From IMG/VR virus record IMGVR_UViG_3300045988_154997, positions 32,001 to 96,000 of that record: a stretch of DNA of 64,000 bases; one strand, given 5' to 3'. A program made the position numbers and the translations under genes. This document shows positions 6,499 through 33,397 of the stretch, one piece after another; within the stretch, counting starts at the first letter, position 1; the number at the start of each line of letters is the position of its first letter. This stretch comes from a virus (lineage: Duplodnaviria; Heunggongvirae; Uroviricota; Caudoviricetes). Under the pieces are notes generated by a model. The model was not told the DNA's origin. It did not search any database and saw only the letters and a program-made list of their open reading frames with translations.

Positions 6499-7596
6499 AA
6501 AATTTACACGAATAAGCTCTGTTGATAGACGATCTCCCTTAAATTTGTGGTCAATTTCGTCTAAATCCGGTTGCTCTACGATTGATGCGATGTACGTCGA
6601 GAAACTTTCTAAGGCGTCTCGCATCTCGTCCATATAATCGTGCCGGTCGTAGACCCGATCTATCCCCTCAAGACTGTGGTTCATGATTTTACGTGATACC
6701 TCCTGGCTTATGCCTAATGCTGGGAAGTAACTACGCGCAGTACGGCGCAAATCTCGGGGTGTAAATGGCTCAAGCTCCATCAGTTCTGGTCGTTCCAGAA
6801 TACGACGTAATGCCTGGGCTATTGCCACTTTAGACATAGGAAGGTCTTTCCCGATTTTTTTATTCGAAGGCACGAGCCACTGGCTGTCTTTACCATATTC
6901 GAACAACTCTTCAATACATGTGCGCATTAATGAGCTTAAAGGCAGAGAATGCTCACGGGCAGATTTGTTCCTCTTGCCTTGATTCCAAACCCCACGCTTA
7001 AGATTGAACTCACTTTTTTTAGCCCGCAGTACTTCGTCAGGTCGTCTTGCGGATACAAGACATAGCCTGGCCGCCCATTTTGTACCAGCACACACATTGA
7101 AGTAGTCCCATATATTCCAGAACACCCATACCTCTGCGTCGGTCAGCTTCCGCTCGCGAGGTGTGGGCTTTGCGCCACCGGCAACTTTGTTAAGTGACAT
7201 ATCGTTTAACGGTGACACGTCGATCATCCCCTGGAAGGCGCACCAGCTGAGGAACTGCTTCATCAGAGAGAAAACGCGGCGACCCATAACAATTTTGCCA
7301 TCCAGTATTAGTGGGTTGACCAGTTGGTTCACCATGAACCTATTAATATCACTTACTTTTACATCGGCAATGTGCGGCAAAACATGTATCAAAATACAAT
7401 GAACAGCGATCTCTGGCCGACGTCTTGTTATCAGCAGAGATAAGCGAGTGAATAACATGAATGCGTCCGAGAATCTCATGTCATTGCTGACCTGGGAGAT
7501 CATAACGGCCTGCATTTGAGATGCTCTTTCGAGATACTCAATCGCCTCTTTTGAGGTGTTCTCCGCAGCGCGTGCTCTGTCAAAGCTATTTTTCAT
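6493..7596 (-). CDS. int: tyrosine site-specific recombinase (integrase/resolvase family)
   Basis: C-terminal catalytic signature DLRRTARS ... NHSLEGIDRVYDRHDY (R..T.R / H / R..Y pattern of tyrosine recombinases); 367 aa. Confidence 0.75.
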   Translation of the reverse strand: MKNSFDRARAAENTSKEAIEYLERASQMQAVMISQVSNDMRFSDAFMLFTRLSLLITRRRPEIAVHCILIHVLPHIADVKVSDINRFMVNQLVNPLILDGKIVMGRRVFSLMKQFLSWCAFQGMIDVSPLNDMSLNKVAGGAKPTPRERKLTDAEVWVFWNIWDYFNVCAGTKWAARLCLVSARRPDEVLRAKKSEFNLKRGVWNQGKRNKSAREHSLPLSSLMRTCIEELFEYGKDSQWLVPSNKKIGKDLPMSKVAIAQALRRILERPELMELEPFTPRDLRRTARSYFPALGISQEVSRKIMNHSLEGIDRVYDRHDYMDEMRDALESFSTYIASIVEQPDLDEIDHKFKGDRLSTELIRVNFS

Positions 7597-7694
7597 ATGA
7601 CAATCACCGAGTTACGCCGATGCACTGTATAAGTAAACAGTATATTAGGCATAGATTCTTATAGGATCAAGAGTAAAAGTAACTCATTTTCAGT

Positions 7695-7727
7695 AATGAT
7701 TCCATACATAGTAGGTATGGAATCATT
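7695..7727. repeat. lox/dif-like recombination core candidate: 13-bp inverted repeats around a 7-bp spacer
   Basis: AATGATTCCATAC-atagtag-GTATGGAATCATT, perfect arms, about 100 bp from the recombinase start codon. Confidence 0.5.
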
Positions 7728-7804
7728 GGGGGGCGATTTTTTTGAATCTATCTTTTCGAACGGAGGGGTTGGCTTCACTTTTATCTTCATCACCTAAAAG
7801 GTAA

Positions 7805-8794
7805 TTGATTTACTTGAAAATGGCTGGTTTTATAGTATTGTCATGCGATCGCTGCAACAGGATAAGAAAAATGATAAAAGAGACACCGGAAGTCAACACG
7901 CTATCTGAGTTATTAGGGGCTACGCCTCCCAAACCTCAGCTAGTAGTGACGACTAAAGGTATTGATTTAGGTCTGGATATCTCCCTCGGAGATTGGAATA
8001 ACTCTTCATTATTATCACGACCTTCAGCTTTGTTAGCAATTGAGCATGGGGAAAATTTATTTGAACTCATGGATAAAGAGTTAGGTCTTGTTGGTATTAA
8101 TGAAGAAGGAGTGATCAAGTCAAACATCATTATCGAACTAGATCCCCATAAAACAACTATGAGAATATTAGGTAAAATTGCGGAAGCACTCATTGTTGAA
8201 GAATGTGAAAAAAACGCGAAACAAAATGAAAACTGGGCATTATTAGCAAAGAGATATACCCCTTTCACAGATAGTTTGTCTAATTATAAAGCTGTTGGGA
8301 CTGGACTCAACTATACGAAAATTAACTATCCTACTAAATATCAACCTAATGATACTCAACGGGACATTGTGTGGATAGACAAACGAGACCCACTTTCTCA
8401 ATTACTTATTTCTGCTCCAACGTCGAATTCAGGTATACAGGCTGGAATTCAAGTGAAGGTCAGTGCAAATGGTCTTAACTATCTATCACCAATGGATTTT
8501 TCTAGCAGAAGATATGAGGTCCCTATTGTTTACTTTGATTTAAATAATGATTTTTTTGAAATTCAGATGAAGATAGTGAACTCAGGAATTGATTCGGTTT
8601 ATGGAATGGATTATCACCGTGGTAGAAACATTTCTCCTGAAATACATGAAAAACTATGTGCATATTATAACCTTATATACTCCATTATCATTGGTGATAT
8701 GAAATTAGAGGCTCTGTTACTAAATGAAGAGGCACTGAAAGGGTATGTGACTGAGATTAAAGATAGACAAGGTAAAAGAATAATCGTGACGTGA
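7805..8794 (+). CDS. hypothetical protein (329 aa), AT-rich cargo gene
   Basis: Long ORF in a roughly 35-38% GC segment; no recognisable motif; true start may be an internal Met. Confidence 0.5.
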   Translation: MIYLKMAGFIVLSCDRCNRIRKMIKETPEVNTLSELLGATPPKPQLVVTTKGIDLGLDISLGDWNNSSLLSRPSALLAIEHGENLFELMDKELGLVGINEEGVIKSNIIIELDPHKTTMRILGKIAEALIVEECEKNAKQNENWALLAKRYTPFTDSLSNYKAVGTGLNYTKINYPTKYQPNDTQRDIVWIDKRDPLSQLLISAPTSNSGIQAGIQVKVSANGLNYLSPMDFSSRRYEVPIVYFDLNNDFFEIQMKIVNSGIDSVYGMDYHRGRNISPEIHEKLCAYYNLIYSIIIGDMKLEALLLNEEALKGYVTEIKDRQGKRIIVT

Positions 8795-11759: not shown

Positions 11760-11846
11760 TGGCGGAGAGTAATGGAATCGAACCATCATCGTTTGCACAA
11801 TGGGACGATTTTCAAGACCGCTTGAGCACCATGCTCCCTACTCTCC
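11760..11846 (-). tRNA. tRNA-Ser (anticodon TGA), type II with long variable arm, CCA encoded
   Basis: Minus-strand sequence GGAGAGT...CGGTCTTGAAAATCG...GGTTCGATTCC...ACTCTCCGCCA: 7-bp acceptor stem, anticodon loop CTTGAAA, T-loop TTCGATT. Confidence 0.7.
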
Positions 11847-12070
11847 GGCCGTTGTGGTGGCCGGTACTGAATCTCCGGCATACGGTGCAGCCAATTAGGA
11901 CTACGGACGATCACCGCTCGCGAAAGGGAAGATTTGCGGCCGCATTTCCCTAACATCCAAGAAAGCTATCGCATCAGTCTGCGAATCCACCACAACGGTA
12001 AGATCACTACCTTTCGACCAGTCATTGTGCACATGAACGACGATTAACCGTAATGATCTTATCGTTGTAT

Positions 12071-12147
12071 TGGTGCCGGTTAACGGACTCGAACCGCTGA
12101 CATCCTGCTTACAAGGCAGGCGCTCTACCAACTGAGCTAAACCGGCA
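12071..12147 (-). tRNA. tRNA-Thr (anticodon TGT), CCA encoded
   Basis: TGCCGGT-TT-AGCTCAGTTGGTAGAGC-G-CCTGC-CTTGTAA-GCAGG-ATGTC-AGCGG-TTCGAGT-CCGTT-AACCGGCA-CCA; canonical cloverleaf. Confidence 0.85.
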
Positions 12148-12150
12148 ATT

Positions 12151-12237
12151 TGGTGGGGAGTGATGGAGTCGAACCACCCGAGTCGCAATGACAGTAGATT
12201 TACAGTCTGTCCCGCTACCTCTACGGACTAACTCCCC
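12151..12237 (-). tRNA. tRNA-Tyr (anticodon GTA), type II, CCA encoded; two non-canonical pairs in the anticodon stem
   Basis: Anticodon arm and variable arm AGACTGTAAATCT.C.GTCAT closely resemble E. coli tRNA-Tyr as recalled from memory; acceptor GGGGAGT/ACTCCCC; T-loop TTCGACT. Confidence 0.65.
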
Positions 12238-12242
12238 TAAAT

Positions 12243-12317
12243 TGGCGATGGTGGGTGGATTCGAACCACCGACCAGTTGGTTAACAGCCAACTGCTCTAC
12301 CGCTGAGCTACACCATC
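12243..12317 (-). tRNA. tRNA-Asn (anticodon GTT), CCA encoded
   Basis: GATGGTG-TA-GCTC-AGCGGTA-GAGC-A-GTTGG-CTGTTAA-CCAAC-TGGTC-GGTGG-TTCGAAT-CCACC-CACCATC-G-CCA. Confidence 0.85.
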
Positions 12318-15599: not shown

Positions 15600-16382
15600 T
15601 TACCAACTTCCCCAGCTAATCATCTTGCGCTGATCGCTTTCTAAGCGATAGGGGGCAAGAAGCTCTGTGACATGATTGGTGGCGTATGATTTGGCCTCTT
15701 GCTCTATCATCGGTAATTCGTTAGCAATCCTGACCATCTTCCCAGCAAATTCCGCCATTACGCCATCACACGCCTTACCCGCATCAACAATGATATGCAC
15801 AAGATCCAACTGGCTTTTGCACATGTCCCAAAGAGTCGAATATTCGCTCTCCCTGATTAGATTTACAGCATCATTAGCCCCTTTATTAATCAAAACCTCC
15901 AACAGATTTGTCGGGGTGACGAAATCGGCTTTCAGAGACAATGTTGGTTCAGCTTTTACCGACAGCAAGTAATCTTCAAAGTTTTGCTTGTCTTCCAGCA
16001 AAGCTAAACTACGCATAGCTCGAATTGATTCTCGAATAACGGCTTCAATATGTTCGTCACCTGGAGGACAGATAATGGTATCTGTATAGATGACTCTGCC
16101 ATCAAACCACGTCCCAACCTGCACTTTTAGAGTTCGTAAGTTTTCTTTGCGTACAAAAACAACTAATGCAGAACGTCGTGCATGTGCAGGTTCGCCCCAT
16201 ACGCACAACTTAACCTTCAGATAAGGTAGCCCCGGTAGCGGGATCTCGACCAAACGAGTGGCGATATGATCCATTGCCGTATTGACGGCTTTTCCAATGA
16301 TGTCTAGCCGATTGCTCTCGCTGATTTCTAAACCAGTTTTATCAATGATGTTGCAGGCTAATCTCTTAATTTCTTCTTTCAT
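15600..16382 (-). CDS. hypothetical protein (260 aa)
   Basis: ORF only; no recognisable motif. Confidence 0.5.
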   Translation of the reverse strand: MKEEIKRLACNIIDKTGLEISESNRLDIIGKAVNTAMDHIATRLVEIPLPGLPYLKVKLCVWGEPAHARRSALVVFVRKENLRTLKVQVGTWFDGRVIYTDTIICPPGDEHIEAVIRESIRAMRSLALLEDKQNFEDYLLSVKAEPTLSLKADFVTPTNLLEVLINKGANDAVNLIRESEYSTLWDMCKSQLDLVHIIVDAGKACDGVMAEFAGKMVRIANELPMIEQEAKSYATNHVTELLAPYRLESDQRKMISWGSW

Positions 16383-16507
16383 ACCAACTCCTAGCTAACG
16401 GATGAAAGTATTCTTACAAAAACTTAAGTATGTATATACTTATCATTTTAGGTGCAATAGTTCTTTATACTAAGATGCCGGGCGTATCCGCAGCCCAGCA
16501 TTCACCT

Positions 16508-16921
16508 TTAATGAGCTACAGCCTCACTGTTGCACATCTTTCTGTAGACCTGCTTATAACGCTGTAAATCATGAGGATCATTAGGTGCCAACGACTTCGA
16601 TAGGATTTTGTATACCACCCCTTTTGAAAACATGCCCTTTGGCTTCATTTCGAGTTCAACAACATATGAGTGATAGCCCACGTATGCACCAAAGCCATTT
16701 TTGGCGTTTAATTCACCACACACAAAGCCTGTCACACTCCCATCATCATGATCAGTCCTGACAAACTTATCTTTCCTAAACATCACCGACGTGGGATCTT
16801 TCATATCATCCGCAATTGCCTGTTGGCCCAGAGTAATAGCCTTCTCGTCTGTAGGCTTACACCCAACTAATGCAAACAAAGACAATAAAGCACCTGTTAA
16901 AATCAACTTCTTTTTGCTCAT
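16508..16921 (-). CDS. lipoprotein (137 aa)
   Basis: Signal peptide MSKKKLILTGALLSLFALVGC with lipobox LVGC. Confidence 0.6.
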   Translation of the reverse strand: MSKKKLILTGALLSLFALVGCKPTDEKAITLGQQAIADDMKDPTSVMFRKDKFVRTDHDDGSVTGFVCGELNAKNGFGAYVGYHSYVVELEMKPKGMFSKGVVYKILSKSLAPNDPHDLQRYKQVYRKMCNSEAVAH

Positions 16922-17154
16922 TTTGACTTCCCTTTATTTATATTTATCGTAGGTATTAGTTAACCAAAACACGAGCCGTGTCACAATAATTCCATAGCTC
17001 ATTATTTCCATCGGTGATTAATATCACATCAACTTTACAGTTCATAAATTAAATTATCAAAGCTGACAGATTAACTAAATTTAAGTACCCTTTTCGCACA
17101 CTTGACGCTTGCCGCGTCTAAACTGTTCATCCTATATCAACAGAACAAAAAAAC

Positions 17155-18300
17155 ATGAAATACATAAAATCTTCATCGTTGCTGGCATTAACTTTGCTTT
17201 TTAACTCTGGATTCGTTAACGCAGACAATAAACAAACGCTGATAGAAGCCGCTACCGCAGGGGATACCGCAGCACAAAGTGAGTTAGGTACAAATTATTT
17301 TGATGGTGTCAATGGTTTTGATAAGGATGTAGTTGAGGCCAAGAAGTGGATTGATCTAGCTGCAGAAAAGGGAGATAAAGTAGCATATTATGCACTTGGA
17401 GTTATGTACACATTTGGCGAGGGTGTAGATAAAGACCTAAATAAAGCTGTTGAGTACTACAAACTTGCGGGGGATGCTCGTGAAGGTAGAGCCTACAACA
17501 ATCTTGGTGCTATTTATCAAAAGGGGATGCTTGGTAAAGTAGATCATGCACTCGCCATTAAATACTTCAAACTAGCCTCTGATGCCGGGTATGTTAAAGC
17601 AACTTCAGTTCTTGGGGCGTATTACCAATATGGTAAAGGCGTTAAAAAGAATTATAAAAAGGCTTTTACTTATTACAAAAAGGCGGCAGACCAAGGCAGT
17701 TCAGAAGCTATGATAGGATTAGGAATACTATACGATGATGGGTTAGGCGTTAAACGCAATGATGCAGAAGCAGTTAAGTGGTATAAAAAGGCAGCGGAAC
17801 TTGGAAACGCCGACGCCATAACCAATCTTGGCATTATGTATGAGAATGGGGAAGGTGTAAAAAAGGACTATAAAAAAGCAGCCGACCTTTATCAGACTGC
17901 TTGCGATAAAGGAGAAAAAAGAGGCTGCGATTACATTGCAGAACTGAAAGAAAGCGGCAAATATCGAGCGCCGGCTTCCAAAGCCAAAACAAAATCCGCC
18001 ACCCAGCGACTTATTGCTAAATCCATTGATAAGGGCGTTAACGCTACATTTACCTGGCAGGGTGATGATGCTACCTTCACCGCTAATGATGGCAAAGTTG
18101 ACTGCACCTTCCTGAAGGATTTTTCAGAGAAAGGAGGCAATCTGGCTACCTCGTTTGTTTGCACCGACAACGTTCAAATCATCCTGAAGCAATTCAGAGA
18201 TACCAAGAATGCCTACCTCGCGGTAATGACTGACAACTTCAACACAGAAGTTAAATCATTTTCGGTCAATGTGTACGTGACTAATACTGGTTCAAACTAA
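17155..18300 (+). CDS. secreted Sel1-like repeat protein
   Basis: Signal peptide MKYIKSSSLLALTLLFNSGFVNA followed by about 7 Sel1-type repeats (A.YNLG.MY..G.GV.KD...A..WYKKAA..G); lone plus-strand gene inside a minus-strand block. Confidence 0.75.
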   Translation: MKYIKSSSLLALTLLFNSGFVNADNKQTLIEAATAGDTAAQSELGTNYFDGVNGFDKDVVEAKKWIDLAAEKGDKVAYYALGVMYTFGEGVDKDLNKAVEYYKLAGDAREGRAYNNLGAIYQKGMLGKVDHALAIKYFKLASDAGYVKATSVLGAYYQYGKGVKKNYKKAFTYYKKAADQGSSEAMIGLGILYDDGLGVKRNDAEAVKWYKKAAELGNADAITNLGIMYENGEGVKKDYKKAADLYQTACDKGEKRGCDYIAELKESGKYRAPASKAKTKSATQRLIAKSIDKGVNATFTWQGDDATFTANDGKVDCTFLKDFSEKGGNLATSFVCTDNVQIILKQFRDTKNAYLAVMTDNFNTEVKSFSVNVYVTNTGSN

Positions 18301-19545
18301 TGCTGCTATGCCTTTTACCTTGCTTAAAAGTTCAAGCTGTCGTGAGTAAGGTTTTGCGCAATAGTAGGCTTTGATAATCTGCCCCGGGGTCGCATCGCCG
18401 GGGTCGAGTCCTTCCTCGCCCAAACATGCAATTTTCACATTAAGACCGATACTGGTCAGTCGCCTGGCTGCGGCCATAGTGTTTCGTATAGCTTGCTTTT
18501 CACTATCCCACATCATGATCACATTACGTAATCCACGCGCCTTGAGCGTCAGGAACGCGCCCAACTGATCTTCTGCATCCTGAGTGGTGTTACCAGATAG
18601 ATGCATCCCGAACGTTCCTATTGGTTCCACGTAATCGCGTAATGTTTCTTCGTCAAAAATAGCTCGTTTGACCCCCATAACATCGAACGCCCCCTCACAG
18701 ACAACTACAGTCTGTTTGCCGACTGCATTGTGGCCGTTGTAGAGAAACTTACCTGAAGCTGGAAGCTGCATAGGAAAGAGGTAGCGGCGTTCTGCTGTAC
18801 CGGTAATGTCTCGTCCTTGAAATGTCTTCATTACCCCATCCAGATCGTAAACCGGTATCAGTATTCGCATATCGAAAATCTGTCCTTTAACCTGATCTGT
18901 ATACGGATCTACATAAGCGTGCTTGCCTTCGACGCAGTATCGTAGGTCAAAATACTTTGCCATTTCAGGCGATATATTTCGTTCAACCAGATAGTCTGGA
19001 AGATGGCCATCTATAGGAAGATCGTAATGACGAGGGAGTGCAACTGGTCCCTCTAACTCGACTGTGCTTGCAAGCACTATCTCTTCTTTCTTTGGTGCCC
19101 ACCCCTGGGAAAGAAGAGCGTTCTGCACATATTCCTCGAACTGTCGTCGTGATTTACCGCTGTAGTGCTTGAGGAAGACCAGCTTATTGAACTGAATCTC
19201 TTCGGGATGATCACCAGCGAAGCATTTACCGACGCCACTGGTCAGATTGAAATATACCTTCCAGTTGGAGCTGCCGCATACCGGACACTCCTTGATATTC
19301 ACTTCACGACCGCGAGTACTCACGCCTCCACGTCGATAAACGATACCTTCAGTATCCAACCATTGTTCAAAATCTAATTCGGTAATTAGCTCTTTCAGCT
19401 CGCTCACGATAATTCCACTTTTAACAGGCAATATTGTGACCAACCTAAATGTTGATATAACATAAAGGCTCATGTGTTTTTCTTTTGTGGTTTGGCAAAA
19501 GAAAAGTTGTTTCACCAATGAATCAAGCGTGGAGGTGTTCTCCAC
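18292..19545 (-). CDS. DnaG-like DNA primase (zinc-binding plus Toprim)
   Basis: Zinc-ribbon-like CPVCGSSNW...C..GDH and Toprim-like VVVCEGAFDV ... MWDSE; start codon uncertain. Confidence 0.65.
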   Translation of the reverse strand: MENTSTLDSLVKQLFFCQTTKEKHMSLYVISTFRLVTILPVKSGIIVSELKELITELDFEQWLDTEGIVYRRGGVSTRGREVNIKECPVCGSSNWKVYFNLTSGVGKCFAGDHPEEIQFNKLVFLKHYSGKSRRQFEEYVQNALLSQGWAPKKEEIVLASTVELEGPVALPRHYDLPIDGHLPDYLVERNISPEMAKYFDLRYCVEGKHAYVDPYTDQVKGQIFDMRILIPVYDLDGVMKTFQGRDITGTAERRYLFPMQLPASGKFLYNGHNAVGKQTVVVCEGAFDVMGVKRAIFDEETLRDYVEPIGTFGMHLSGNTTQDAEDQLGAFLTLKARGLRNVIMMWDSEKQAIRNTMAAARRLTSIGLNVKIACLGEEGLDPGDATPGQIIKAYYCAKPYSRQLELLSKVKGIAALV

Positions 19546-19554
19546 GCTTATTTT

Positions 19555-20895
19555 TTAGGTAACGTCTAAGATTCGCTCAATGAAGCGCATTTGTTCGAGG
19601 TTTTGTTTAACGCGAATGCTGATCCCTCCCTGCTGGTTACGCGAACCAGCAAAGTAGAGACGAGCCTCTCCTTTCGCTTCTTCTTCTTCGGTTTTGTTGA
19701 TCGTTATTACCAGGTCAGCAATACGTACTTTTTCGATGTTGTCGGCAGCGTGCATCATTGTGGCAACTTCTGACGCGCCACCTTCACGGTTTGTTTGCGA
19801 CGCCGTGATACCAGCAACGTTATGCTTGTCATAAAGAGCACGTAAATCGGTGTAGATACTACGAATGTTGGCGCGATCATCACGAAGGTCATAACTGGCA
19901 CGCATCAAATCTGCGTAGTCGACAACAACCATGTCAGGCACCATGCCGTTGGCTTTCATGCTGTTAAGCATACGGTCCAGATCTGCCGGTGACATACTTC
20001 CTGACGGACGCTCAACCACCCACAAACTACCAATCCCCTTCGTGGCTCCCAACTCTGCCAACTTACGATGAACCTCATCGCGCCGTTCCACCAGCTTGGA
20101 CATTTCTGTCTCCGACAATCTTGCATCAAAACGGTCGGATAAAATGGTGGTGTGAACCTCCAGCGAGAGATACAGAACATTGTAGCCAGCAAGCGTTGCG
20201 TTTATGGAAAACTCACCCATTGCGGTCGATTTGCCGGATTTAGCGAACCCCATGAAGAGCACCATTTCACGCTTCGCCCAGCCTTTTTGGTACAGCAACC
20301 TATCGAGCAGAGGGAGTCCAGTTGTAATGCTGTTTGGCACATACTCCTCTGAAGCCTCATATTCACGCGCTTTCAATCGCTCACTTGCGGAGGTGTAGTA
20401 GTCATAGATTCCGGTCGCTTCGTTCGAGCCTATCTGCTGAACCTTGGCCATGATTGCCATCGCCCCCTGAAAGTCGCCCTTCTCTTTCAGTTCAGCAGCT
20501 TTAATCAGAGCATCATCAAACGCTACACTTTTTGCGAATGTGGATACCTGGTCAACCATGTACGAGGTATCAGACAATTTTTCTGCAAGGATGCGCTTAA
20601 ACGCAGCAACAACATCCGGGAAGAGTTCCTCACGGATGGTCTTATCGCGTTTCGCGCGCTTAAGCATATCCAGAATCGCAGATGAAGAAGGCGCGCTCTT
20701 GTACATACGGTAATAGCCCGAAACCATATTAACCAATATGGCATTGGCCGCATTGGCAAATTGGCTAGGCACAACCAGATCTCCCGCACGAGTAAGAAAC
20801 TCGTGATCACGACAAAAATATGCCGTCAGTCTGTTCTGGAAATCTTCATCAAACTCTTCGGACAGCCCGCGTCCTGTATGGCAAAGTTCGGTCAT
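19555..20895 (-). CDS. DnaB-family replicative helicase
   Basis: Walker A GFAKSGKST, Walker B-like VLYLSLE, and VVVDYADLM plus ITASQTNRE matching DnaB H4/arginine-finger regions. Confidence 0.8.
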   Translation of the reverse strand: MTELCHTGRGLSEEFDEDFQNRLTAYFCRDHEFLTRAGDLVVPSQFANAANAILVNMVSGYYRMYKSAPSSSAILDMLKRAKRDKTIREELFPDVVAAFKRILAEKLSDTSYMVDQVSTFAKSVAFDDALIKAAELKEKGDFQGAMAIMAKVQQIGSNEATGIYDYYTSASERLKAREYEASEEYVPNSITTGLPLLDRLLYQKGWAKREMVLFMGFAKSGKSTAMGEFSINATLAGYNVLYLSLEVHTTILSDRFDARLSETEMSKLVERRDEVHRKLAELGATKGIGSLWVVERPSGSMSPADLDRMLNSMKANGMVPDMVVVDYADLMRASYDLRDDRANIRSIYTDLRALYDKHNVAGITASQTNREGGASEVATMMHAADNIEKVRIADLVITINKTEEEEAKGEARLYFAGSRNQQGGISIRVKQNLEQMRFIERILDVT

Positions 20896-21876: not shown

Positions 21877-23073
21877 TTAAACATCTTTTAGAAAGCCTGG
21901 AAACCAATGTTTCATGATATACCTAAAATGTGCTCTAGTTGGTTCAAAAACCTGTCTAGATACCAGCGCTCCATCAGGATGATTCTGAACAGACTGTTCT
22001 TTTTCCATATCGTAAAAATTATGAGTTATCTCTGGGGGGAAGAAAATATTTCTGTCCAGTGGCACTGTCGCAAAAGGATTGTAGTAAATATGAAGGCCGT
22101 CAAAGTGCGTCTCTTCATGAGCAGTGGAATGGCAAACTACAATATCCGCACCAGTGACTTCGTTATTTAAAAAATGCCGATATGTAGTGATGAAATGATC
22201 AGGACCTATCCTTTGTGTGTGCTTTCCCTCGTTTTTCATCCCTTCATTGGCGATGAAATCATTCACATCAATGGCTCGATATCGTGTTGACCTTACATAT
22301 CTACCGATACCGCTTTGAACCACGGCTTTTCCAAAAGTGCCGGTGGTGGAGAAAATAACCGCACTTATTTCTTTATATGAGTCGTTAGTAAATATACCTA
22401 ATGGAATTTCAACGTCTTCATTCTTTTTGATTGAGGTAACTTTAGTTTGGCTGCCAGTCACCAAATTTCTGGTGGTAGGTTCCTCAATGCCAAACAACAC
22501 TCGATTGATGATTGTGTTATTTTGAGACAATGATAAATCGGAGTCAAAGGGTGCAAGCGCCAGAACAAACGGCTTATTAACTACATGAGACATCGTAGAG
22601 TACGGGAATTTTTTGCCATTAACTCCTGTAAAAAGATCATGTTTGTCTTTGATTTTTCCGATTAATTTTAGCGTTGATTGATGTTTGAATTTTGATTCGC
22701 TAAAAAGAGCACCTGCAGGTGGATTATGTGGCCGATCTGATATCACAGCTTCGACGTTAAACTGGTAGCCTGACGGTGTAGTAACACAGAAATCGGGACT
22801 GTCTTTTGTGTAGTCGACAGAATAATCGAGACGAATAAACATTTCGTTCAGATACAATTCCCATAAGGCGGAATTGAAGGTTGTCTGAAACTCTTTAACG
22901 AATTTAGTCTGCTCACCGCTACGCTCCAGTAACCCACGCCCCCACGACTGTATCACTTCTCTTACTGGAGCATATGTATTATCTTGATAAATCTGTTTAA
23001 AAGATTCGTGCAGCTTGTTTTTTGCTATTTTGGTTGAGAACAAATCCATTATTAGCCTCACTAACCAGTTCAA
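21877..23073 (-). CDS. hypothetical protein (398 aa), AT-rich
   Basis: ORF only; no recognisable motif; adjacent to the DUF2971-like gene. Confidence 0.5.
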   Translation of the reverse strand: MNWLVRLIMDLFSTKIAKNKLHESFKQIYQDNTYAPVREVIQSWGRGLLERSGEQTKFVKEFQTTFNSALWELYLNEMFIRLDYSVDYTKDSPDFCVTTPSGYQFNVEAVISDRPHNPPAGALFSESKFKHQSTLKLIGKIKDKHDLFTGVNGKKFPYSTMSHVVNKPFVLALAPFDSDLSLSQNNTIINRVLFGIEEPTTRNLVTGSQTKVTSIKKNEDVEIPLGIFTNDSYKEISAVIFSTTGTFGKAVVQSGIGRYVRSTRYRAIDVNDFIANEGMKNEGKHTQRIGPDHFITTYRHFLNNEVTGADIVVCHSTAHEETHFDGLHIYYNPFATVPLDRNIFFPPEITHNFYDMEKEQSVQNHPDGALVSRQVFEPTRAHFRYIMKHWFPGFLKDV

Positions 23074-23115
23074 TAAGAAAAGCGCCCAACATAATCATTT
23101 GAGGAAAGTCTGGAG

Positions 23116-23835
23116 CTACTTCAGCTTTTCTTTGACAAGAAGATAACCATCATCAGGTGTACTCATTTTGTAAACCTCGATGCTCGTGTCTAGCTGTGTC
23201 CGGGCATATTCTTCTACTTCAGGAGAAACGTTATACCCAAGAATGATCTCTCTAATATATTTCTTATCAAATGCCTGAGCGCCTATTTTTTTAGTAATAA
23301 CCCTTTGTTCTTCCTCATATTTCCAGCATTCGTGCTTGTAGAAAAAGAGCTTATCAAAAAGTACCTTAAACTCATCTGTAACTTCATCGAACACGGGAAC
23401 AGAAGGTATATATTTCACATTATCAAAGCTGTGATACCCCTCAATAGAGGTAACAAAATCATCATCAAAGCCTATGCAGAAACCTTTATGCGACACTGAG
23501 TAATGTGACCACATCAAGATGTTATCTTCGTTTGGTGACAAGCACACCACACCAAAAGCCCCTAATGATTCTTTCCGCAAATCCACAGCCAACGATTTTG
23601 CAGCTTCAGGAGCTACAGCATCCCAGTCTTCAAAGGAAAAATCCTTACATCCATTGTCTTCAAAGTGTTTCCGGCGCTCCACTTCTGTACCTCCCATCGT
23701 TATCGAAACTTTGAACTCTGATGGGTCGTTGAATGAAGAAGGTGCGCTAGCAGAGATAGTGCCGTCCTCTACAAACCGTTTGAGGTTACGTAACACTTTT
23801 TGCGAATCTTCACTTCCAATATATTTGTAGAGCAT
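23116..23835 (-). CDS. DUF2971-family protein
   Basis: From the ATG at 23835: MLYKYIGSEDSQKVL...SFNDPSEF, ILMWSHYSVSHKGFCIGFD, ECWKYEEEQRV, the signature pattern I recall for DUF2971. Track start at 23874 is a TTG. Confidence 0.55.
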   Translation of the reverse strand: MLYKYIGSEDSQKVLRNLKRFVEDGTISASAPSSFNDPSEFKVSITMGGTEVERRKHFEDNGCKDFSFEDWDAVAPEAAKSLAVDLRKESLGAFGVVCLSPNEDNILMWSHYSVSHKGFCIGFDDDFVTSIEGYHSFDNVKYIPSVPVFDEVTDEFKVLFDKLFFYKHECWKYEEEQRVITKKIGAQAFDKKYIREIILGYNVSPEVEEYARTQLDTSIEVYKMSTPDDGYLLVKEKLK

Positions 23836-23879
23836 TAGGGAACCTATAGAAAGAGGTGCCAAGCAGCACCTCAATAAAA

Positions 23880-29098: not shown

Positions 29099-32000
29099 TT
29101 ATTCTTTAGGTGAATTTAACTTCGTTTCAAGCTCCTCAACCCTTTTGGTCAATTGCTGAATATGATGAATGAGTGGTACAACCAAACGCTCATACATCAC
29201 TCCTTCAGCGACCATACCATTTGAGGAAATATCTCCTGGAGAATCATTATTTGTTGGTTCACGCCAATGGACATATTGCGGGGCAATCTCACCAACCTCT
29301 TCAGCAATAAGGCCGTAATACCCCCAATCCTTTCGGTCACCTCGACAAATTGAACGATACCAAACAGGTCTTAATGACAAAAGTTCATCAGCATATCGAT
29401 CTTGTAATGTTTCAATATCCTTTTTATAGCGCCTTGAAGATGTTGAACGCCAAACTGTATTGATACCTGGGTTTGGATCAATGTACATATTGGCACCGCT
29501 AGTAGTTGTGCCAATATCCCATATAGCAAACCCTCCACTACCGCCTGATTTGACAACCAGTGTTTCAGCAATAATATCCAGGTTGCCACTATAGCCTGTC
29601 AGTGATGATCTGCTTGCATAGGAACTTAGAAGGTTTGTTACCTCTGTTTTCGTATAAGCATTAAGGTTAGCCGCAGTCAAAGTAATATCGGCAGAGCCAT
29701 CAAACGCCACACCAGCAATTTTCCTTGCTGTCTGCAATTTTGTGGCTGTTGCGGCATTACCAGTAGTATTCTGATTACCGGTTGTATTCACACCAGGGAT
29801 TGAATCCTTAGCGGTATATACCTGCGCCCACGCTGACCATGCCGCATCAGTGGTATCTCTTCTGGAGCGAATGAAAACCGGCGCATGTGCACCGCTCGTA
29901 CCACTCCAGCCAATAAGCAACTCGCCCTCACCAGCAGCACTCGCACCTTTCATGTGCAATACGTTGCCATACGTGGTCGGGTAGCTATTGTTGTACGCCT
30001 CGTACATTTGAATGCCAGCAGTACCTTGAGTAGAACCGCTTAAAGCCGTAACTCGACCACGAGAAACCAATGTATTAATATTGATATCACCTGAACCATC
30101 AAACTTAACACCATTGATGTTTCTCGCTGTTTGCAACTTCGTAGCTGTTGAAGCATTGCCATTCAAGCTACCATTTACGCCACCAGTAACATTTAGTCCA
30201 TTACCAATAGACACAACACCGCTGCTATTATTAATTATAATCGGTCGCAAACTGTTCCATGAACCTAACGTATCTCCTGATGCTGTTAGCATGAAATATG
30301 TGCTGCCGCCGTCATTACGGATAAAGAACCCGTAGTTACCGTAAGCAATGCGGAAACCATTTGCATATTTTGAAACGATCTCACCAGAAGACGTTAACCC
30401 TCCAGATAATGTGCCACCTGAAAGCGGTAATGCTCCTACATCAGAAGCTGTTGGTTTGTTTCTAGTGTTATAAGAACGACGCCAGCCTGGTGCATAATCA
30501 CTTCCATTGTACACATAAATAAATTCCGCATTGTTAACACCACCATGACCCGATGTTGTTGTCGTTGTAACACGAATAGTGTAGTGGCTTGTTGCCTTAT
30601 TACTAAACACCTCAATCACGGAACCAGATAGATCGATCCTACCGCAACCAGTGTCGTCTATATAATTATTGTTGGCGTAAGTCCATGAGCACCGTGCGAT
30701 CCAATGTTTGTTTGTAAATGCCCCCTGATTATTTAGCCAAGTTATAAATTGAGCAGTCGTAAATGCCGTTCCGTTACCACTATTTAACCATCCAGCGGCA
30801 GCGGTTGGCGCGTTTATATCAGCCGGCTGAGGCATAAATCCAGTCGTGTAAACCTGCTCCCAACCACTTTCAAAACCATAGCCATCTCTTGAGGAACGGT
30901 AGAACAGACCACCATTTTTATAGTGAGCTTTAATTTGAAGCGTACGGCAACTACCTACACCGGTATAAAAGTTGGCAAGAATATAACTGTCGCCTGTTCT
31001 AGTTACATTGTAAGCACCAGATTCAGCATTCCACGGCACGCCACCATCAGCATCCGCATATGACCCTGTTGCCCTTCTTGCGAAAGCGGCAACATGCGCA
31101 GCGGTTAAAGTGATATCAGTAGAACCATCAAATGGAACACCGGATATTTTTCTTGCAGTCTGAAGTTTTGTAGCAGTTGCAGCATTACCAGTGGTGTTCT
31201 GATTACCCGTAGTGTTTACACCTGGAAGGTTGATATTTGCAGAACCGTCGAAACCAACTCCACCGATAGATCTTGCCGTCTGCAATTTCGTTGCTGTACT
31301 TGCATTACCATTTAATGTTCCGGTGATCCCACCAGTAACAGACAACGGACCTGAAACTGTTCCTCCGGTTGTTGGCAGTGCTCCAATATCTAACGGCGTC
31401 GGTTTCTGATGTGTGCTATACATCGTATAAACAACACCATCGGTAACGCTGGAAGGCTTACTCGCTGAATATGTTGGCGATGTATAAATAGAAACTGACG
31501 CATTTGCAGTACAATCCCAATGGATATTTACACTCGTCGCATAATTGCCAATTTCAACGTAAATATCATATGTATCGCCGGATGTGTTGATCCAGGCGAA
31601 ATTCGTTAATCCGACAGCTGTACGCTTCCACAAAGCACCTGTAATCCCTTTGGGGTTTCCATTGCCTGCTCGTAGAACCAGTTCTGAAATGCCTGCCTGA
31701 TGTGGGGAGCCGACGTTGTAACCAGCGCCACCAATCAATGCGATGTAAACGATGGAACTCGCTTGTGGCATTGTAACAGTAGCCAGTTTGAACCACCCGG
31801 CCCCGCCAGAGAAAGACATCGTTATTGAATTTAAAGTACCAATATCTTTCGGCGTTAATGTGATATCCGCAGTCAGTGCTTTCCCGTTAATTTTTCGGTT
31901 AGATGGCACCCTGCTGTTCGCATTGTCATTGACTACTTTAACTGCTTTTGGCGTTGCGGCCAGCGATTCACTGGTGCTGTCGACAGCACTGCTAAGTTTC

Positions 32001-33397
32001 ACAACACCTTTAGTTGTAAGGCTTGCGTCTTCCATCGCAACTGCACCGGCAATCTCTTCAGCACGATCAGCAGCAGCTTCCGCACGGGTCGCAGCGGATT
32101 CAGCAGCAGTTTTGCTCTGAGATGCTGCCGTCGCACTGCCTGCCGCCTCTGTTGCTTTCGTGGATGCCGTCGTGGCGCTGCCCTTCGCTGCTGACGCCTG
32201 TCTGGTCGCCTCATCTTTTGAAGCAGACGCAGATGATGCCGATGACGCCGCCGAACTGGCGGACGATGCGGCAGCCGTTTTTGAGGATTCTGCGCTGGTT
32301 TCCGACGCTTTCGCGTTCGTTTCGGATGTCTTCGCTGCGGAAGCAGACCTCGCTGCTGCGCTGGCCTGTTCAGTGGCTTCGCCAGCCTTCGTTGTGGCTG
32401 TTGAAGCAGACGATGCGGCACTTTCTGCCGATTTTCCGGCGGCGGTGGCACTGGCTGAGGCCTGCCCGGCACTTGTTGACGCGGCACTGGCAGACGACGC
32501 AGCCGCTGTTTTTGAGCCTGCCGCAGCCGAGGCGCTCTGTCCCGCTGCCGTTTCAGAAGACCTGGCGTTCGTCTCGGACGTTTTTGCCGCCTTCGCGGAA
32601 TTTCCTGCCGCCGTTGCCGAGGAAGCGGCATTACTGGCGCTCGAGGCTGCGCTCGTTTCTGATGATTTCGCTGCCTCTTTTGAGGCCGCCGCATCCCGGG
32701 CTGAGGTGGCAGCTTCTGACGCCTTCGTGGTCGCGGTGGATGCAGAAGTGGCTGCAGATTTTTGTGACGCTGCAGCATTCGTTTCAGACGTTTTCGCGGC
32801 ACCGGCACTGGTGGCCGCCGCGCTTTTTGAGGACTCTGCAGCGGATGCACTTTGAGACGCTTGAGAGGCTTTTTCTCCAGCGGTATTGGCGCTTTCTGCT
32901 GCTGCGGCAGCACTGGCCGCCGCCTCACGAGCTTTGTCGCCAGCAGCATCAATCGCGTCAGTGTTATTTTTATACCACTCAACGTTTTCGTTGTGCTCGT
33001 TGACGATCTGCATTAGCGGCTTAACGGTCACTTCTGTACCGTCTTCACGCTCGATTGTCACCTCATCCAGAGCAGTCAACCAACTGCGCATGGACTTGGA
33101 ATCAGCCGACATACGCGACATTAGTGCTGTAAAGCGCGCGCTAAACTGTGTTAAGTCGCCTTCATAGGTCGTAATGATTCGGCACGGAACTTCAGACTGA
33201 GTTTCGCCGGTATAAGGTTCTGAGAGAACAATGTTCGTATCACTGGTTACGCGCTTGATCTCATACAGCTTATTGTCGGGGCCAATGACGATCATCCCCG
33301 GCAACACACCATTAGCTGTTACGTTCCAGGCTGTCCCTGCCCCAACCAGAGTATTGCTGCCCTGTGTAAATGTGATAGTACCTTCCCTGTACCACAT
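29099..33397 (-). CDS. tail fiber protein (1432 aa) with Ala/Ser-rich repeat region, fibre repeats and C-terminal intramolecular-chaperone-like domain
   Basis: Repeated GN(A/S)ATATKLQTAR...GVxFDGSxDI fibre motifs; long AS-rich low-complexity segment; C-terminal DIETLQDRYADELLSLRPVWYRSI...GLIAEEV resembles self-cleaving chaperone domains of tail fibres/tailspikes. Confidence 0.8.
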   Translation of the reverse strand: MWYREGTITFTQGSNTLVGAGTAWNVTANGVLPGMIVIGPDNKLYEIKRVTSDTNIVLSEPYTGETQSEVPCRIITTYEGDLTQFSARFTALMSRMSADSKSMRSWLTALDEVTIEREDGTEVTVKPLMQIVNEHNENVEWYKNNTDAIDAAGDKAREAAASAAAAAESANTAGEKASQASQSASAAESSKSAAATSAGAAKTSETNAAASQKSAATSASTATTKASEAATSARDAAASKEAAKSSETSAASSASNAASSATAAGNSAKAAKTSETNARSSETAAGQSASAAAGSKTAAASSASAASTSAGQASASATAAGKSAESAASSASTATTKAGEATEQASAAARSASAAKTSETNAKASETSAESSKTAAASSASSAASSASSASASKDEATRQASAAKGSATTASTKATEAAGSATAASQSKTAAESAATRAEAAADRAEEIAGAVAMEDASLTTKGVVKLSSAVDSTSESLAATPKAVKVVNDNANSRVPSNRKINGKALTADITLTPKDIGTLNSITMSFSGGAGWFKLATVTMPQASSIVYIALIGGAGYNVGSPHQAGISELVLRAGNGNPKGITGALWKRTAVGLTNFAWINTSGDTYDIYVEIGNYATSVNIHWDCTANASVSIYTSPTYSASKPSSVTDGVVYTMYSTHQKPTPLDIGALPTTGGTVSGPLSVTGGITGTLNGNASTATKLQTARSIGGVGFDGSANINLPGVNTTGNQNTTGNAATATKLQTARKISGVPFDGSTDITLTAAHVAAFARRATGSYADADGGVPWNAESGAYNVTRTGDSYILANFYTGVGSCRTLQIKAHYKNGGLFYRSSRDGYGFESGWEQVYTTGFMPQPADINAPTAAAGWLNSGNGTAFTTAQFITWLNNQGAFTNKHWIARCSWTYANNNYIDDTGCGRIDLSGSVIEVFSNKATSHYTIRVTTTTTSGHGGVNNAEFIYVYNGSDYAPGWRRSYNTRNKPTASDVGALPLSGGTLSGGLTSSGEIVSKYANGFRIAYGNYGFFIRNDGGSTYFMLTASGDTLGSWNSLRPIIINNSSGVVSIGNGLNVTGGVNGSLNGNASTATKLQTARNINGVKFDGSGDININTLVSRGRVTALSGSTQGTAGIQMYEAYNNSYPTTYGNVLHMKGASAAGEGELLIGWSGTSGAHAPVFIRSRRDTTDAAWSAWAQVYTAKDSIPGVNTTGNQNTTGNAATATKLQTARKIAGVAFDGSADITLTAANLNAYTKTEVTNLLSSYASRSSLTGYSGNLDIIAETLVVKSGGSGGFAIWDIGTTTSGANMYIDPNPGINTVWRSTSSRRYKKDIETLQDRYADELLSLRPVWYRSICRGDRKDWGYYGLIAEEVGEIAPQYVHWREPTNNDSPGDISSNGMVAEGVMYERLVVPLIHHIQQLTKRVEELETKLNSPKE

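Follow-up and report, generated by a model that had tools for sequence, protein, structure and literature searches.

Separable genes for a predicted lipoprotein and a predicted periplasmic Sel1-repeat protein in a variable slot of an SSU5-like phage-plasmid

The stretch of DNA analyzed here, hereafter called the window (64 kb), is assigned to an SSU5-family phage-plasmid of Escherichia coli on the basis of its identity to plasmid pYLPM7a (99.9%) and, on the flanks, to phage Cyrano (96%). Phage-plasmids of the SSU5 type have been tied by published surveys to multidrug-resistant lineages of Shigella sonnei and S. Typhi, and their accessory genes are the part able to alter the phenotype of the host. 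Their backbone is present in 253 of the 5,426 complete E. coli genomes (~5%). The subject of this analysis is a slot situated between the gene of phrog_4248, which was found in every SSU5-like relative examined, and the 3' end of the primase gene. The features of the region are the following:

15600..16382, minus strand: left flanking backbone gene, 260 aa, phrog_4248 (PHROG E 7e-131)
16409..16447: conserved intergenic element at the left boundary of the slot, with the inverted repeat TAAGTAT-gtat-ATACTTA inside
16449..17823: hypervariable segment defined by blastn breakpoints, which takes in the lipoprotein gene, the spacer and the Sel1 gene's 5' part
16508..16921, minus strand: gene of a predicted outer-membrane-type lipoprotein, 137 aa, mature form ~13 kDa (lipobox, cystatin/NTF2-like fold)
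16922..17154: divergent AT-rich spacer, 233 bp, 33% GC
17155-18300, plus strand: gene of the Sel1 protein, 381 aa (Pfam PF08238)
17155..17223, plus strand: Sel1 residues 1-23, predicted Sec-type signal peptide with predicted cleavage after VNA (sequence features, homologues)
17224..17958, plus strand: Sel1 residues 24-268, seven Sel1-like helical hairpins (invariant C250/C258, DNA repeats of 108-nt periodicity)
18007..18297, plus strand: Sel1 residues 285-381, C-terminal beta domain (eight beta strands, invariant C317/C336)
18292..18317: right junction, with a 9-bp overlap between the region of the Sel1 stop codon and the 3' end of primase, the two genes being convergent
18292..19407, minus strand: right flanking backbone gene, DNA primase, 371 aa (phrog_47 E 1e-62, Toprim_2, RefSeq annotation in pYLPM7a)

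The initial annotation, a reading of the letters and open reading frames alone, had described the 381-aa gene as the only plus-strand gene within a long minus-strand block, encoding a signal peptide followed by about seven Sel1-type repeats, with a lipoprotein gene just upstream on the other strand; it had also proposed a repeat-domain profile search as a check. This description is borne out by our analysis. Between 13 and 59.5 kb the gene is the only substantial plus-strand ORF outside the minus-strand ORFs, and the profile search matched PF08238 with six scored repeats (178.2 bits vs a cut-off of 30.7, E 1.1e-53), membership of the SLR proteins being defined by several alpha/alpha repeats of 36-44 residues above the Pfam gathering threshold. 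The AlphaFold model contains 14 helices forming seven hairpins with pLDDT >90, which build a helical-hairpin superhelix like that of solved SLR structures. The N-terminus reads MKYIKSSSLLALTLLFNSGFVNA up to the predicted cleavage site and DNK beyond it, with Lys at positions 2 and 5, a hydrophobic core spanning residues 6-20 and V-N-A at -3 to -1 before D24. This pattern is retained in homologues at 50-60% identity, and residues 1-22 are unstructured in the model (signal-peptide pLDDT <50); by such signal-peptide criteria the product is predicted to be a Sec-exported periplasmic protein. Invariant cysteine pairs, present in this protein and in the lipoprotein alike, also speak for export. The lipoprotein gene does lie on the other strand, but 'just upstream' has to be read as divergent transcription over the AT-rich spacer.

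Absent from the initial annotation was the conserved C-terminal beta domain of ~100 aa (residues about 285-381), which does not consist of Sel1 repeats. Within the protein, conservation is highest in this domain, with 64-99% identity vs 49-60% for the repeat region, and its strands are modelled with moderate confidence (pLDDT ~70 in an AlphaFold model from 10 sequences). The domain falls in no known family: a lenient Pfam scan returned only DUF3617 (E 0.17), profile and sequence searches of the PDB gave no match, and a word-index search for homologues of the beta domain alone retrieved only three fragments, all of them truncated, and revealed no further domain architectures. For the Sel1 protein as a whole, the NCBIfam scan gave nothing specific, and PADLOC produced a weak repeat/TPR-type match to PtuA, without a scoring stretch, and matched no defence model. 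Our literature search found nothing on the Sel1 gene of this slot in the contexts of SSU5, phage-plasmids, prophages or phage resistance, and it located no transcriptome of an element with the cassette.

The 137-aa ORF on the minus strand begins with MSKKKLILTGALLSLFALVG followed by C, in which L18-V19-G20-C21 forms the lipobox LVGC at the end of the signal peptide, in agreement with the consensus [LVI][ASTVI][GAS]C and with the earlier designation of the gene. Close homologues all share L18, G20 and C21, and most of the wider family retains the lipobox Cys. Processing by Lgt/Lsp would be followed by sorting to the outer membrane, at its inner face, since Lys occupies position +2 (the E. coli +2 rule). 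The cystatin/NTF2-like domain carries a single strongly conserved hairpin loop, an invariant cysteine pair and the conserved motif KDPxSxxFR...VCGExNAKNxFGAYxG...C; the combination of fold, QxVxG hairpin and PW loop that characterizes cystatin-type inhibitors is not found in it. The family is very large (~4,800 clusters at 50% identity, including phage and bacterial proteins) and has no Pfam or NCBIfam model. Profile and sequence searches of the PDB retrieved no match for it, a fold search against viral models returned uncharacterized phage proteins only, the NCBIfam scan gave nothing specific and PADLOC no match. Comparison with the Bor, Cor and Llp families showed no sequence or profile match (Pfam, PHROG), and both the lipoprotein and the Sel1 protein match only PHROG families of unknown function.

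The spacer between the two genes presumably holds the promoters of both; a consensus scan found 8 promoter-like sites in comparison with 8.8 expected from shuffles. No terminator directly after the lipoprotein or the Sel1 gene emerged from the terminator scan, the 3' end of the latter overlapping primase, and the Rfam scan returned no match. A conserved plus-strand hairpin followed by a T-run is present at 19525-19556, at the far end of the primase gene; it was considered as a Sel1-specific terminator and rejected, since it is conserved also in elements with an empty slot. In base composition, the lipoprotein and Sel1 genes have a GC content of 0.42 vs 0.47-0.49 for ligase, primase and helicase, and GC3 within the Sel1 gene is 0.33 in the repeat region and 0.50, hence backbone-like, in the part encoding the beta domain.

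On the left side of the slot, blastn homology to Cyrano, SSU5 and the related elements L008 and L013 stops at 16443-16455, at the conserved intergenic element, which may serve the phrog_4248 gene as an upstream regulatory site. Its 39 bp are 90% identical to SSU5, whereas the adjoining coding gene has no detectable nucleotide match to SSU5. The hypervariable segment that follows includes, of the Sel1 gene, the signal peptide and the first five of the seven hairpins, and shows no nucleotide homology (blastn) to L008, an element with Sel1 only, the flanks of which are 95-97% identical. On the right side, homology to Cyrano and SSU5 restarts at 18308/18317 (blastn), and the exchanged segment takes in the last few codons of primase. 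All primases compared have 371 aa, with a C-terminus ..KGIAALV common to the elements bearing Sel1 and ..LGIKALS/V/L in the others. The 9-bp overlap of Sel1 and primase recurs in L008, L013, L014 and L023-L027, and the position, orientation and overlap of the Sel1 gene are constant across elements of Escherichia, Enterobacter and Citrobacter, the primases of which are 91% identical. The Sel1 gene is a long-standing resident of the slot in these genera rather than the product of one recent insertion event. Two repeats, a direct one of 12 nt close to either end of the slot and an inverted one of 27 nt (70%) that surrounds the lipoprotein gene, are weak and off the junctions, and were taken as chance.

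At least five states of the slot were seen. It is empty in phage Cyrano, CMS-2020a and PhiR41_1, and among related plasmids sampled from a listing, many E. coli/Shigella records have a span too short for a slot gene; it contains the lipoprotein only in Enterobacter pHD8642-1 and Cronobacter pCS1, Sel1 only in L008, L013 and L014, and unrelated genes in SSU5 and Klebsiella pJN2-26. Lipoprotein and Sel1 occur together in 55-62 of the complete E. coli genomes positive for the SSU5 backbone (about a quarter), and the cassette is carried by 62 of all 5,426 complete genomes. Except for the lipoprotein, all slot occupants lie on the plus strand and converge on primase. In the elements with lipoprotein only, the gene follows primase after 33-45 bp and reads in the direction of the replication genes; joint expression with these, and not as a lysogeny gene, is therefore conceivable and, embedded as it is in this gene string, the gene may be expressed in lytic growth. 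Since the two genes are found singly, jointly or not at all, they behave as separable accessory modules.

Both genes are under purifying selection, with dN/dS of 0.04 for the lipoprotein, 0-0.09 for the beta domain and 0.10-0.28 for the Sel1 repeat region; they are real genes and not chance ORFs, and selection of this strength on the coding sequence implies that the gene product itself matters. Synonymous divergence is distributed very unevenly, for in the comparison with L023 dS reaches 1.1-1.3 in the repeat region vs 0.01-0.10 in the lipoprotein, beta domain and primase. Similarly, L008 is 97-99% identical in the flanks and 99% in the beta domain but only 60% in the repeat region. These patterns indicate that the Sel1 repeat region has been swapped between otherwise near-identical backbones. 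An identical lipoprotein (WP_000038288.1) is moreover found with Sel1 alleles of 381 and 417 aa; an obligate two-gene system was consequently rejected, because each gene also occurs alone and the same lipoprotein pairs with different alleles. Spread of the slot would proceed through homologous exchange in the conserved flanks rather than site-specific insertion.

Relatives of both proteins are encountered outside the slot. Homologues of the lipoprotein are encoded in the P2-like phage SEN5, flanked by ogr and int, in Enterobacter, where a prophage ends, and in the lambdoid phages Fraca and AUS531phi, with tail genes K and I on either side; the family extends to phages of Pseudomonas, Paracoccus and Acinetobacter, and other phages have the domain joined to a cell-wall-binding one (SPOR or PG_binding_1). 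A homologue combining Sel1 repeats and beta domain (Sel1-beta) is encoded behind the tail-fibre genes where a lambdoid prophage ends, full-length homologues are present also in Pantoea and Leclercia, and a chromosomal remnant in E. whittamii retains the Sel1 gene intact next to degraded pieces of lipoprotein and primase. Both genes recur in this way as cargo of unrelated temperate phages.

The genes resemble lambda bor/lom, phi80/N15 cor and T5 llp in being small accessory genes, variable among syntenic relatives, that encode lipoproteins or exported products. Like other morons, they vary in presence among collinear relatives, have relatives at prophage ends or beside tail genes and deviate from their neighbours in base composition, which is below that of the backbone. 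The moron-like, non-core character proposed in the initial annotation is upheld by these properties; the predicted export and accessory nature of both genes stands, and they are not one unit. Lysogenic conversion or an envelope effect, also named there, may be a role of these genes, and the host interaction mentioned there is taken from what the Sel1 family is reputed for. They differ from the Bor, Cor and Llp morons in residing inside the replication gene block of a plasmid-prophage and in lacking a family match. We conclude that the lipoprotein and the Sel1 gene are very probably independent, exported-type accessory cargo in a variable slot. What goes beyond routine annotation is the swap slot, the two-part design of the Sel1 protein and the unmodelled lipoprotein family.

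Sel1 repeats are protein-binding scaffolds, and lytic transglycosylases can be inhibited by periplasmic Sel1 proteins; Legionella EnhC-Slt is among the closest known systems. [quoted passage not shown] The likeness to the slot lies in the types of component and in the cell-wall connection, IltA binding a lytic transglycosylase and homologues of the lipoprotein domain being fused to cell-wall-binding domains. However, IltA has three repeats and no beta domain is mentioned for it, LiiA binds via an alpha-helical domain (PMC10746161), and the slot proteins have seven hairpins plus a beta domain and a cystatin-like fold, respectively; their genes, unlike those of IltA/LiiA, occur independently of each other.

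Considering the scaffold nature of Sel1 repeats, the IltA analogy, the lipoprotein fusions and the anti-phage systems PD-T7-5 and PDC-S31 nearby (neighbouring genes at 21877-23874, PADLOC), we infer that the two independent modules of this recombination-prone slot, a lipoprotein and a soluble periplasmic Sel1 protein, would both bind, and probably inhibit, an envelope-acting protein in the periplasm. The variable superhelix would be the target-binding part and the conserved, disulfide-containing beta domain a constant anchoring or effector part. Candidate targets are a cell-wall hydrolase, the injection component of an incoming phage or a periplasm-acting toxin, and the carrier cell would be protected against superinfection or interbacterial attack. 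Taken whole, cargo together with this protective role, the statement is tentative, plausible but somewhat short of probable.

Several results speak against the protective reading: neither protein matches a PADLOC defence model or a PHROG family of known function, no cognate toxin adjoins the Sel1 gene in the window, the promoter scan stayed at the chance level and gave no terminator for either gene, and the beta domain is modelled with moderate confidence. The repeats of the Sel1 protein are moreover most similar in sequence to those of EsiB and HcpC, both linked to interaction with animal hosts, which also counts against a protective binder or inhibitor. EsiB binds secretory IgA, HcpA and LpnE modulate host cells, and Bor/Iss act in serum resistance; the genes might accordingly serve in the animal host or in virulence, a released Sel1 protein binding host factors and the lipoprotein acting like Bor/Iss. 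Yet the similarity mostly mirrors the consensus of the repeat and says nothing specific about function; neither EsiB (c5321 of uropathogenic E. coli) nor Helicobacter Hcp has the C-terminal beta domain, and both are chromosomal, not carried by phages; the Sel1 protein has no route across the outer membrane, and the lipoprotein does not match the Bor family. The occurrence of Sel1-beta in Pantoea and Leclercia, and of the lipoprotein in phages of the three genera named above, is not pathogen-specific either, and we consider a virulence role quite unlikely. Orphan immunity against periplasm-acting toxins, of the T6SS Tle/VgrG type or CDI, by which the host would be protected from its neighbours, is a further reading; PA5086-5088 of P. 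aeruginosa are periplasmic Sel1-repeat immunity proteins. These and Sel1E are toxin-neutralizing Sel1-repeat binders forming arrays of diversified paralogues. Sel1E of Klebsiella confers T6SS immunity, with inconclusive localization predictions and an uncharacterized C-terminal extension (PMC7108748). Their genes adjoin the effector, T6SS immunity genes of this type (Tli5b/Sel1E) lying beside tle or a toxin-domain vgrG, whereas no cognate toxin adjoins the Sel1 gene in the window or in four of five chromosomal loci, and no effector was found beside it in L005, L010, L018 and L020, nor in E. whittamii, Pantoea, Leclercia or the lambdoid prophage. In the CDI island of L004, where only CdiA fragments are nearby, the Sel1 gene is ~870 bp from the nearest toxin fragment and off the immunity position. 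A beta domain has not been reported for the PA508x proteins, although Sel1E has its extension, and orphan immunity seems unlikely to us.

The constancy of position, orientation and primase overlap in three genera, the plus-strand occupants facing primase, the lipoprotein homologues inside lambdoid tail-gene clusters and in the replication gene string of pHD8642-1/pCS1, and the conserved hairpin at the far end of primase would all suit a function in the phage life cycle instead, either in controlling the host's cell-wall hydrolases (infection, lysis, release of virions) or in keeping progeny from adsorbing to debris, or mainly a plus-strand antisense effect dampening primase in the plasmid state. 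Against this stand the many viable relatives without both genes, including the isolated phages Cyrano and SSU5, the presence of the hairpin where the slot is empty, the strong purifying selection on protein-coding sequence and the intact Sel1 gene in a chromosomal remnant without phage; a life-cycle role is rather improbable.

Going further along the protective binder or inhibitor reading, Sel1-beta and the cystatin-like lipoprotein might each represent an uncharacterized class of temperate-phage periplasmic exclusion or immunity factor. The superhelix would recognize varied phage or toxin proteins, such as tail-borne cell-wall hydrolases, the beta domain would tether or inactivate them, the NAKNxFGAY hairpin would act as a wedge that inhibits an enzyme of the cell wall or envelope, and the slot would be an envelope-defence hotspot beside the cytoplasmic PD-T7-5/PDC-S31. 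We regard this extension as speculative and decidedly improbable. If either protein were such a factor, many 'hypothetical' prophage genes would acquire a role; if neither is, they are ordinary cargo, a solid but fairly ordinary phage example. The slot is in any case a natural swap site, and the design of the Sel1 protein, with its variable binding part and constant beta domain, makes target specificity directly testable by allele exchange.

Around the lipoprotein and Sel1 genes, the minus strand encodes a primase, a DnaB-like helicase and an ATP-dependent DNA ligase. Flanking sequence matches Escherichia phage Cyrano at 96% identity and Salmonella phage SSU5 at about 80%, and the two genes themselves are 99.9% identical to the E. 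coli plasmid pYLPM7a; given these identities, the window is an SSU5-family phage-plasmid of E. coli. Both open reading frames were found where the initial annotation had placed them, and the Sel1 gene is indeed a lone plus-strand gene, with no other substantial gene on that strand within 13-59.5 kb.

Features of the variable slot and its neighbourhood
16409-16447: intergenic element of 39 bp, lying upstream of phrog_4248 and 90% identical to SSU5
16508-16921, minus strand: lipoprotein gene, 137 aa
17155-18300, plus strand: Sel1 gene, 381 aa
21877-23073, minus strand: PD-T7-5, anti-phage gene (PADLOC E 1.5e-139)
23116-23874, minus strand: PDC-S31 / DUF2971 protein, anti-phage gene (E 2e-38)

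The slot extends from the phrog_4248 gene to the 3' end of the primase gene. On the left, homology to relatives is lost at 16443-16455, just past the 39-bp element, which is conserved in SSU5 even though the adjacent coding sequence has no detectable SSU5 nucleotide match; this element holds the inverted repeat TAAGTAT-gtat-ATACTTA, a candidate operator or promoter, and marks where recombination bounds the slot on the left. On the right, homology is back at 18308-18317, within the last primase codons, and the primases of Sel1-bearing elements share a distinct C-terminal variant. Five states of the slot were found among relatives, in which Sel1-beta denotes Sel1 repeats followed by a C-terminal beta domain.

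Occupancy of the slot in related elements
Empty, about 75 bp: Cyrano, CMS-2020a, PhiR41_1 and, in the sampled listing, many E. coli/Shigella plasmids
Lipoprotein alone: Enterobacter pHD8642-1, Cronobacter pCS1 (60-62% identical)
Sel1-beta alone: one E. coli contig; Enterobacter and Citrobacter plasmids
Both genes: the window and comparison loci L023-L027
Unrelated plus-strand gene, function unknown: SSU5, Klebsiella pJN2-26

The lipoprotein gene of pHD8642-1 and pCS1 runs in the backbone direction, 33-45 bp past the primase, and elements with Sel1-beta alone have the same orientation and 9-bp primase overlap as the window. The primase-helicase backbone is present in 253 of 5,426 complete E. 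coli genomes, 62 of which carry the cassette of both genes, always on a plasmid (coverage of at least 80% in 55 of the 62). Since the two genes are found separately or together across these states, they are independent accessory modules with one hotspot in common.

By pairwise Nei-Gojobori estimates, dN/dS is 0.04 in the lipoprotein, 0-0.09 in the beta domain and 0.10-0.28 across the repeats, compared with 0.05-0.09 for the primase and 0.31-0.37 for the phrog_4248 gene. Both genes are functional and under purifying selection, with no sign of positive selection in either by the same pairwise measure. The repeat region, moreover, is swapped as a block. Against L008, an element carrying Sel1 only, the flanks and beta domain are 95-99% identical, whereas 16449-17823 lacks detectable nucleotide homology; against pTLYA-2 the lipoprotein is identical in protein sequence, and dS, at 0.01-0.10 across the lipoprotein, beta domain and primase, reaches 1.1-1.3 within the repeats. 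Whole repeats account for the differences among Sel1 alleles (335, 381 and 417 aa), and DNA repeats with a period of 108 nt occur in the gene. A specific partnership between lipoprotein and repeats seems unlikely, given that different repeat alleles occur beside the same lipoprotein.

The assignment to Sel1 proteins is borne out by the Pfam Sel1 profile (178 bits against a cut-off of 30.7; six repeats), and the proposed number of about seven repeats agrees with the AlphaFold model, in which 14 helices form seven hairpins (pLDDT >90). The N-terminus, MKYIKSSSLLALTLLFNSGFVNA followed by D, fits the signal peptide originally suggested, being of Sec type in its charge, its hydrophobic core and its residues at -3 and -1; it has no structure in the model, and the pattern is retained in homologues at only 50-60% identity. 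Residues ~285-381, overlooked in the initial annotation, are non-repeat and form eight consecutive beta strands (pLDDT ~70) with two invariant cysteines. This beta domain is the best-conserved part of the protein among homologues (64-99% identity vs 49-60% in the repeat region), but matches no Pfam family (top match DUF3617, E 0.17) and has no sequence relative in the PDB. Full-length Sel1-beta proteins are uncommon: scanning 185,579 species genomes with a pattern left only five confirmed loci, each of them in Enterobacterales.

The neighbouring protein likewise proves to have a canonical lipobox, its N-terminus being MSKKKLILTGALLSLFALVG followed by CK. By the E. coli sorting rule, Lys at +2 directs lipoproteins to the outer membrane, and this location is therefore predicted here; both proteins would be exported, judging from their N-termini. 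Searched with a profile, 1.84 billion representatives yielded 4,780 clusters of this family at E<=1e-3, mostly lipoproteins of 100-140 aa named "hypothetical protein" throughout. Their common features are KDPxSxxFR, a C-terminal Cys and the hairpin VCGExNAKNxFGAYxG, and a diverse set of 40 members gave no Pfam domain match. The model (pLDDT 89) places one helix against an antiparallel sheet of four strands and has a second, C-terminal helix. Three homologues from Providencia and Moellerella (P0147, P0148 and P0155, 274-289 aa) combine an N-terminal lipoprotein domain with an unrelated C-terminal half, on contigs of 97-110 kb, about the size of SSU5-like elements, one of them annotated as a plasmid.

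Comparative genomics upholds the initial description of moron-like cargo, in that the genes are accessory, separable and recurrent in temperate phages; their products belong with the accessory exported proteins of such phages, while lysogenic conversion, suggested in the same place, is a possible role. Lipoprotein homologues (47-48% identical) occupy the ogr-integrase interval of P2-like phages SEN4 and SEN5 and an Enterobacter prophage end, and shorter or fused ones separate tail genes K and I in lambdoid phage Fraca and Pseudomonas phage AUS531phi. Fusion partners of the domain are a cell-wall-binding SPOR domain in AUS531phi and PG_binding_1 in other phages. One Sel1-beta homologue (46% identical) follows the tail-fibre genes at a lambdoid prophage end (L010); 0.8 kb downstream, at 7047-7982, lies a second Sel1-repeat protein of 311 aa without a signal peptide; it has a membrane segment at its C-terminus and a zinc-ribbon-like motif, CPFC...CTGC. 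Another homologue shares an island with transposases and CdiA fragments. On the Escherichia whittamii chromosome (L018 6517-9905), a decayed SSU5-like phage-plasmid fragment between yciB and yciA/tonB comprises IS3 transposase pieces, 21 codons left over from the N-terminus of the lipoprotein and a primase fragment. Its Sel1-beta gene is nevertheless intact, with a beta domain 90% identical, and this survival is one indication that Sel1-beta benefits the bacterium without the phage. The homologue on the Leclercia adecarboxylata chromosome (L020 7998-9039) is broken into ORFs of 142 and 197 aa and is probably a pseudogene.

As to function, we infer that each protein would bind another protein in the periplasm, and favour, with modest confidence, a protective role as binder or inhibitor, on account of precedents, the cell-wall-module fusions and the nearby anti-phage genes. 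Cor and Llp are phage exclusion lipoproteins, and T4 Spackle inhibits a tail lysozyme. [quoted passage not shown] The fusions in other phages lend circumstantial support, as do PD-T7-5 and PDC-S31, 3.5 kb from the gene pair.

Several observations count against a defence role: neither protein matches in PADLOC, no toxin adjoins the genes, no autonomous promoter or terminator is detectable there and, in lipoprotein-alone elements, the gene lies within the replication gene string. The proteins might instead serve as orphan immunity proteins, which we consider unlikely, or in the phage life cycle, to which we give a similarly low probability; a virulence-type role seems slightly less likely still. 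The two uncharacterised protein modules and the natural swap site merit bench testing.

The Cyrano gene map has no PD-T7-5 counterpart and holds only the PDC-S31 homologue CYRAN_30 in this region, which therefore represents a second variable site within the replication block; PD-T7-5 was reported earlier from SSU5-group E. coli elements (2025 preprint, bioRxiv 10.1101/2025.09.12.675607). The 147-bp helicase-primase spacer (19408-19554) is highly conserved in Escherichia, Salmonella, Enterobacter and Klebsiella elements. Within it lies a plus-strand hairpin (19525-19549, 11-bp stem), antisense to the genes and followed by a T-run to 19556, which is found in filled-slot and empty-slot elements alike and shows an apparent compensatory A-T to G-C change in an alignment judged by eye; it could terminate antisense transcripts or belong to a site for replication or regulation. 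Position 32001-33000, inside a minus-strand ORF of 1,432 aa (29099-33397), is anomalous in composition (GC 0.60, AT skew -0.33), and the long overlapping ORFs around it, in several frames and on both strands, suggest a low-complexity or repeat-rich part of a large tail or fibre protein. A cluster of four tRNAs (Ser-TGA, Thr-TGT, Tyr-GTA, Asn-GTT) lies at 11760-12317 on the minus strand; in the matching regions, Ser, Thr and Asn only are annotated in Cyrano and Asn only in SSU5.
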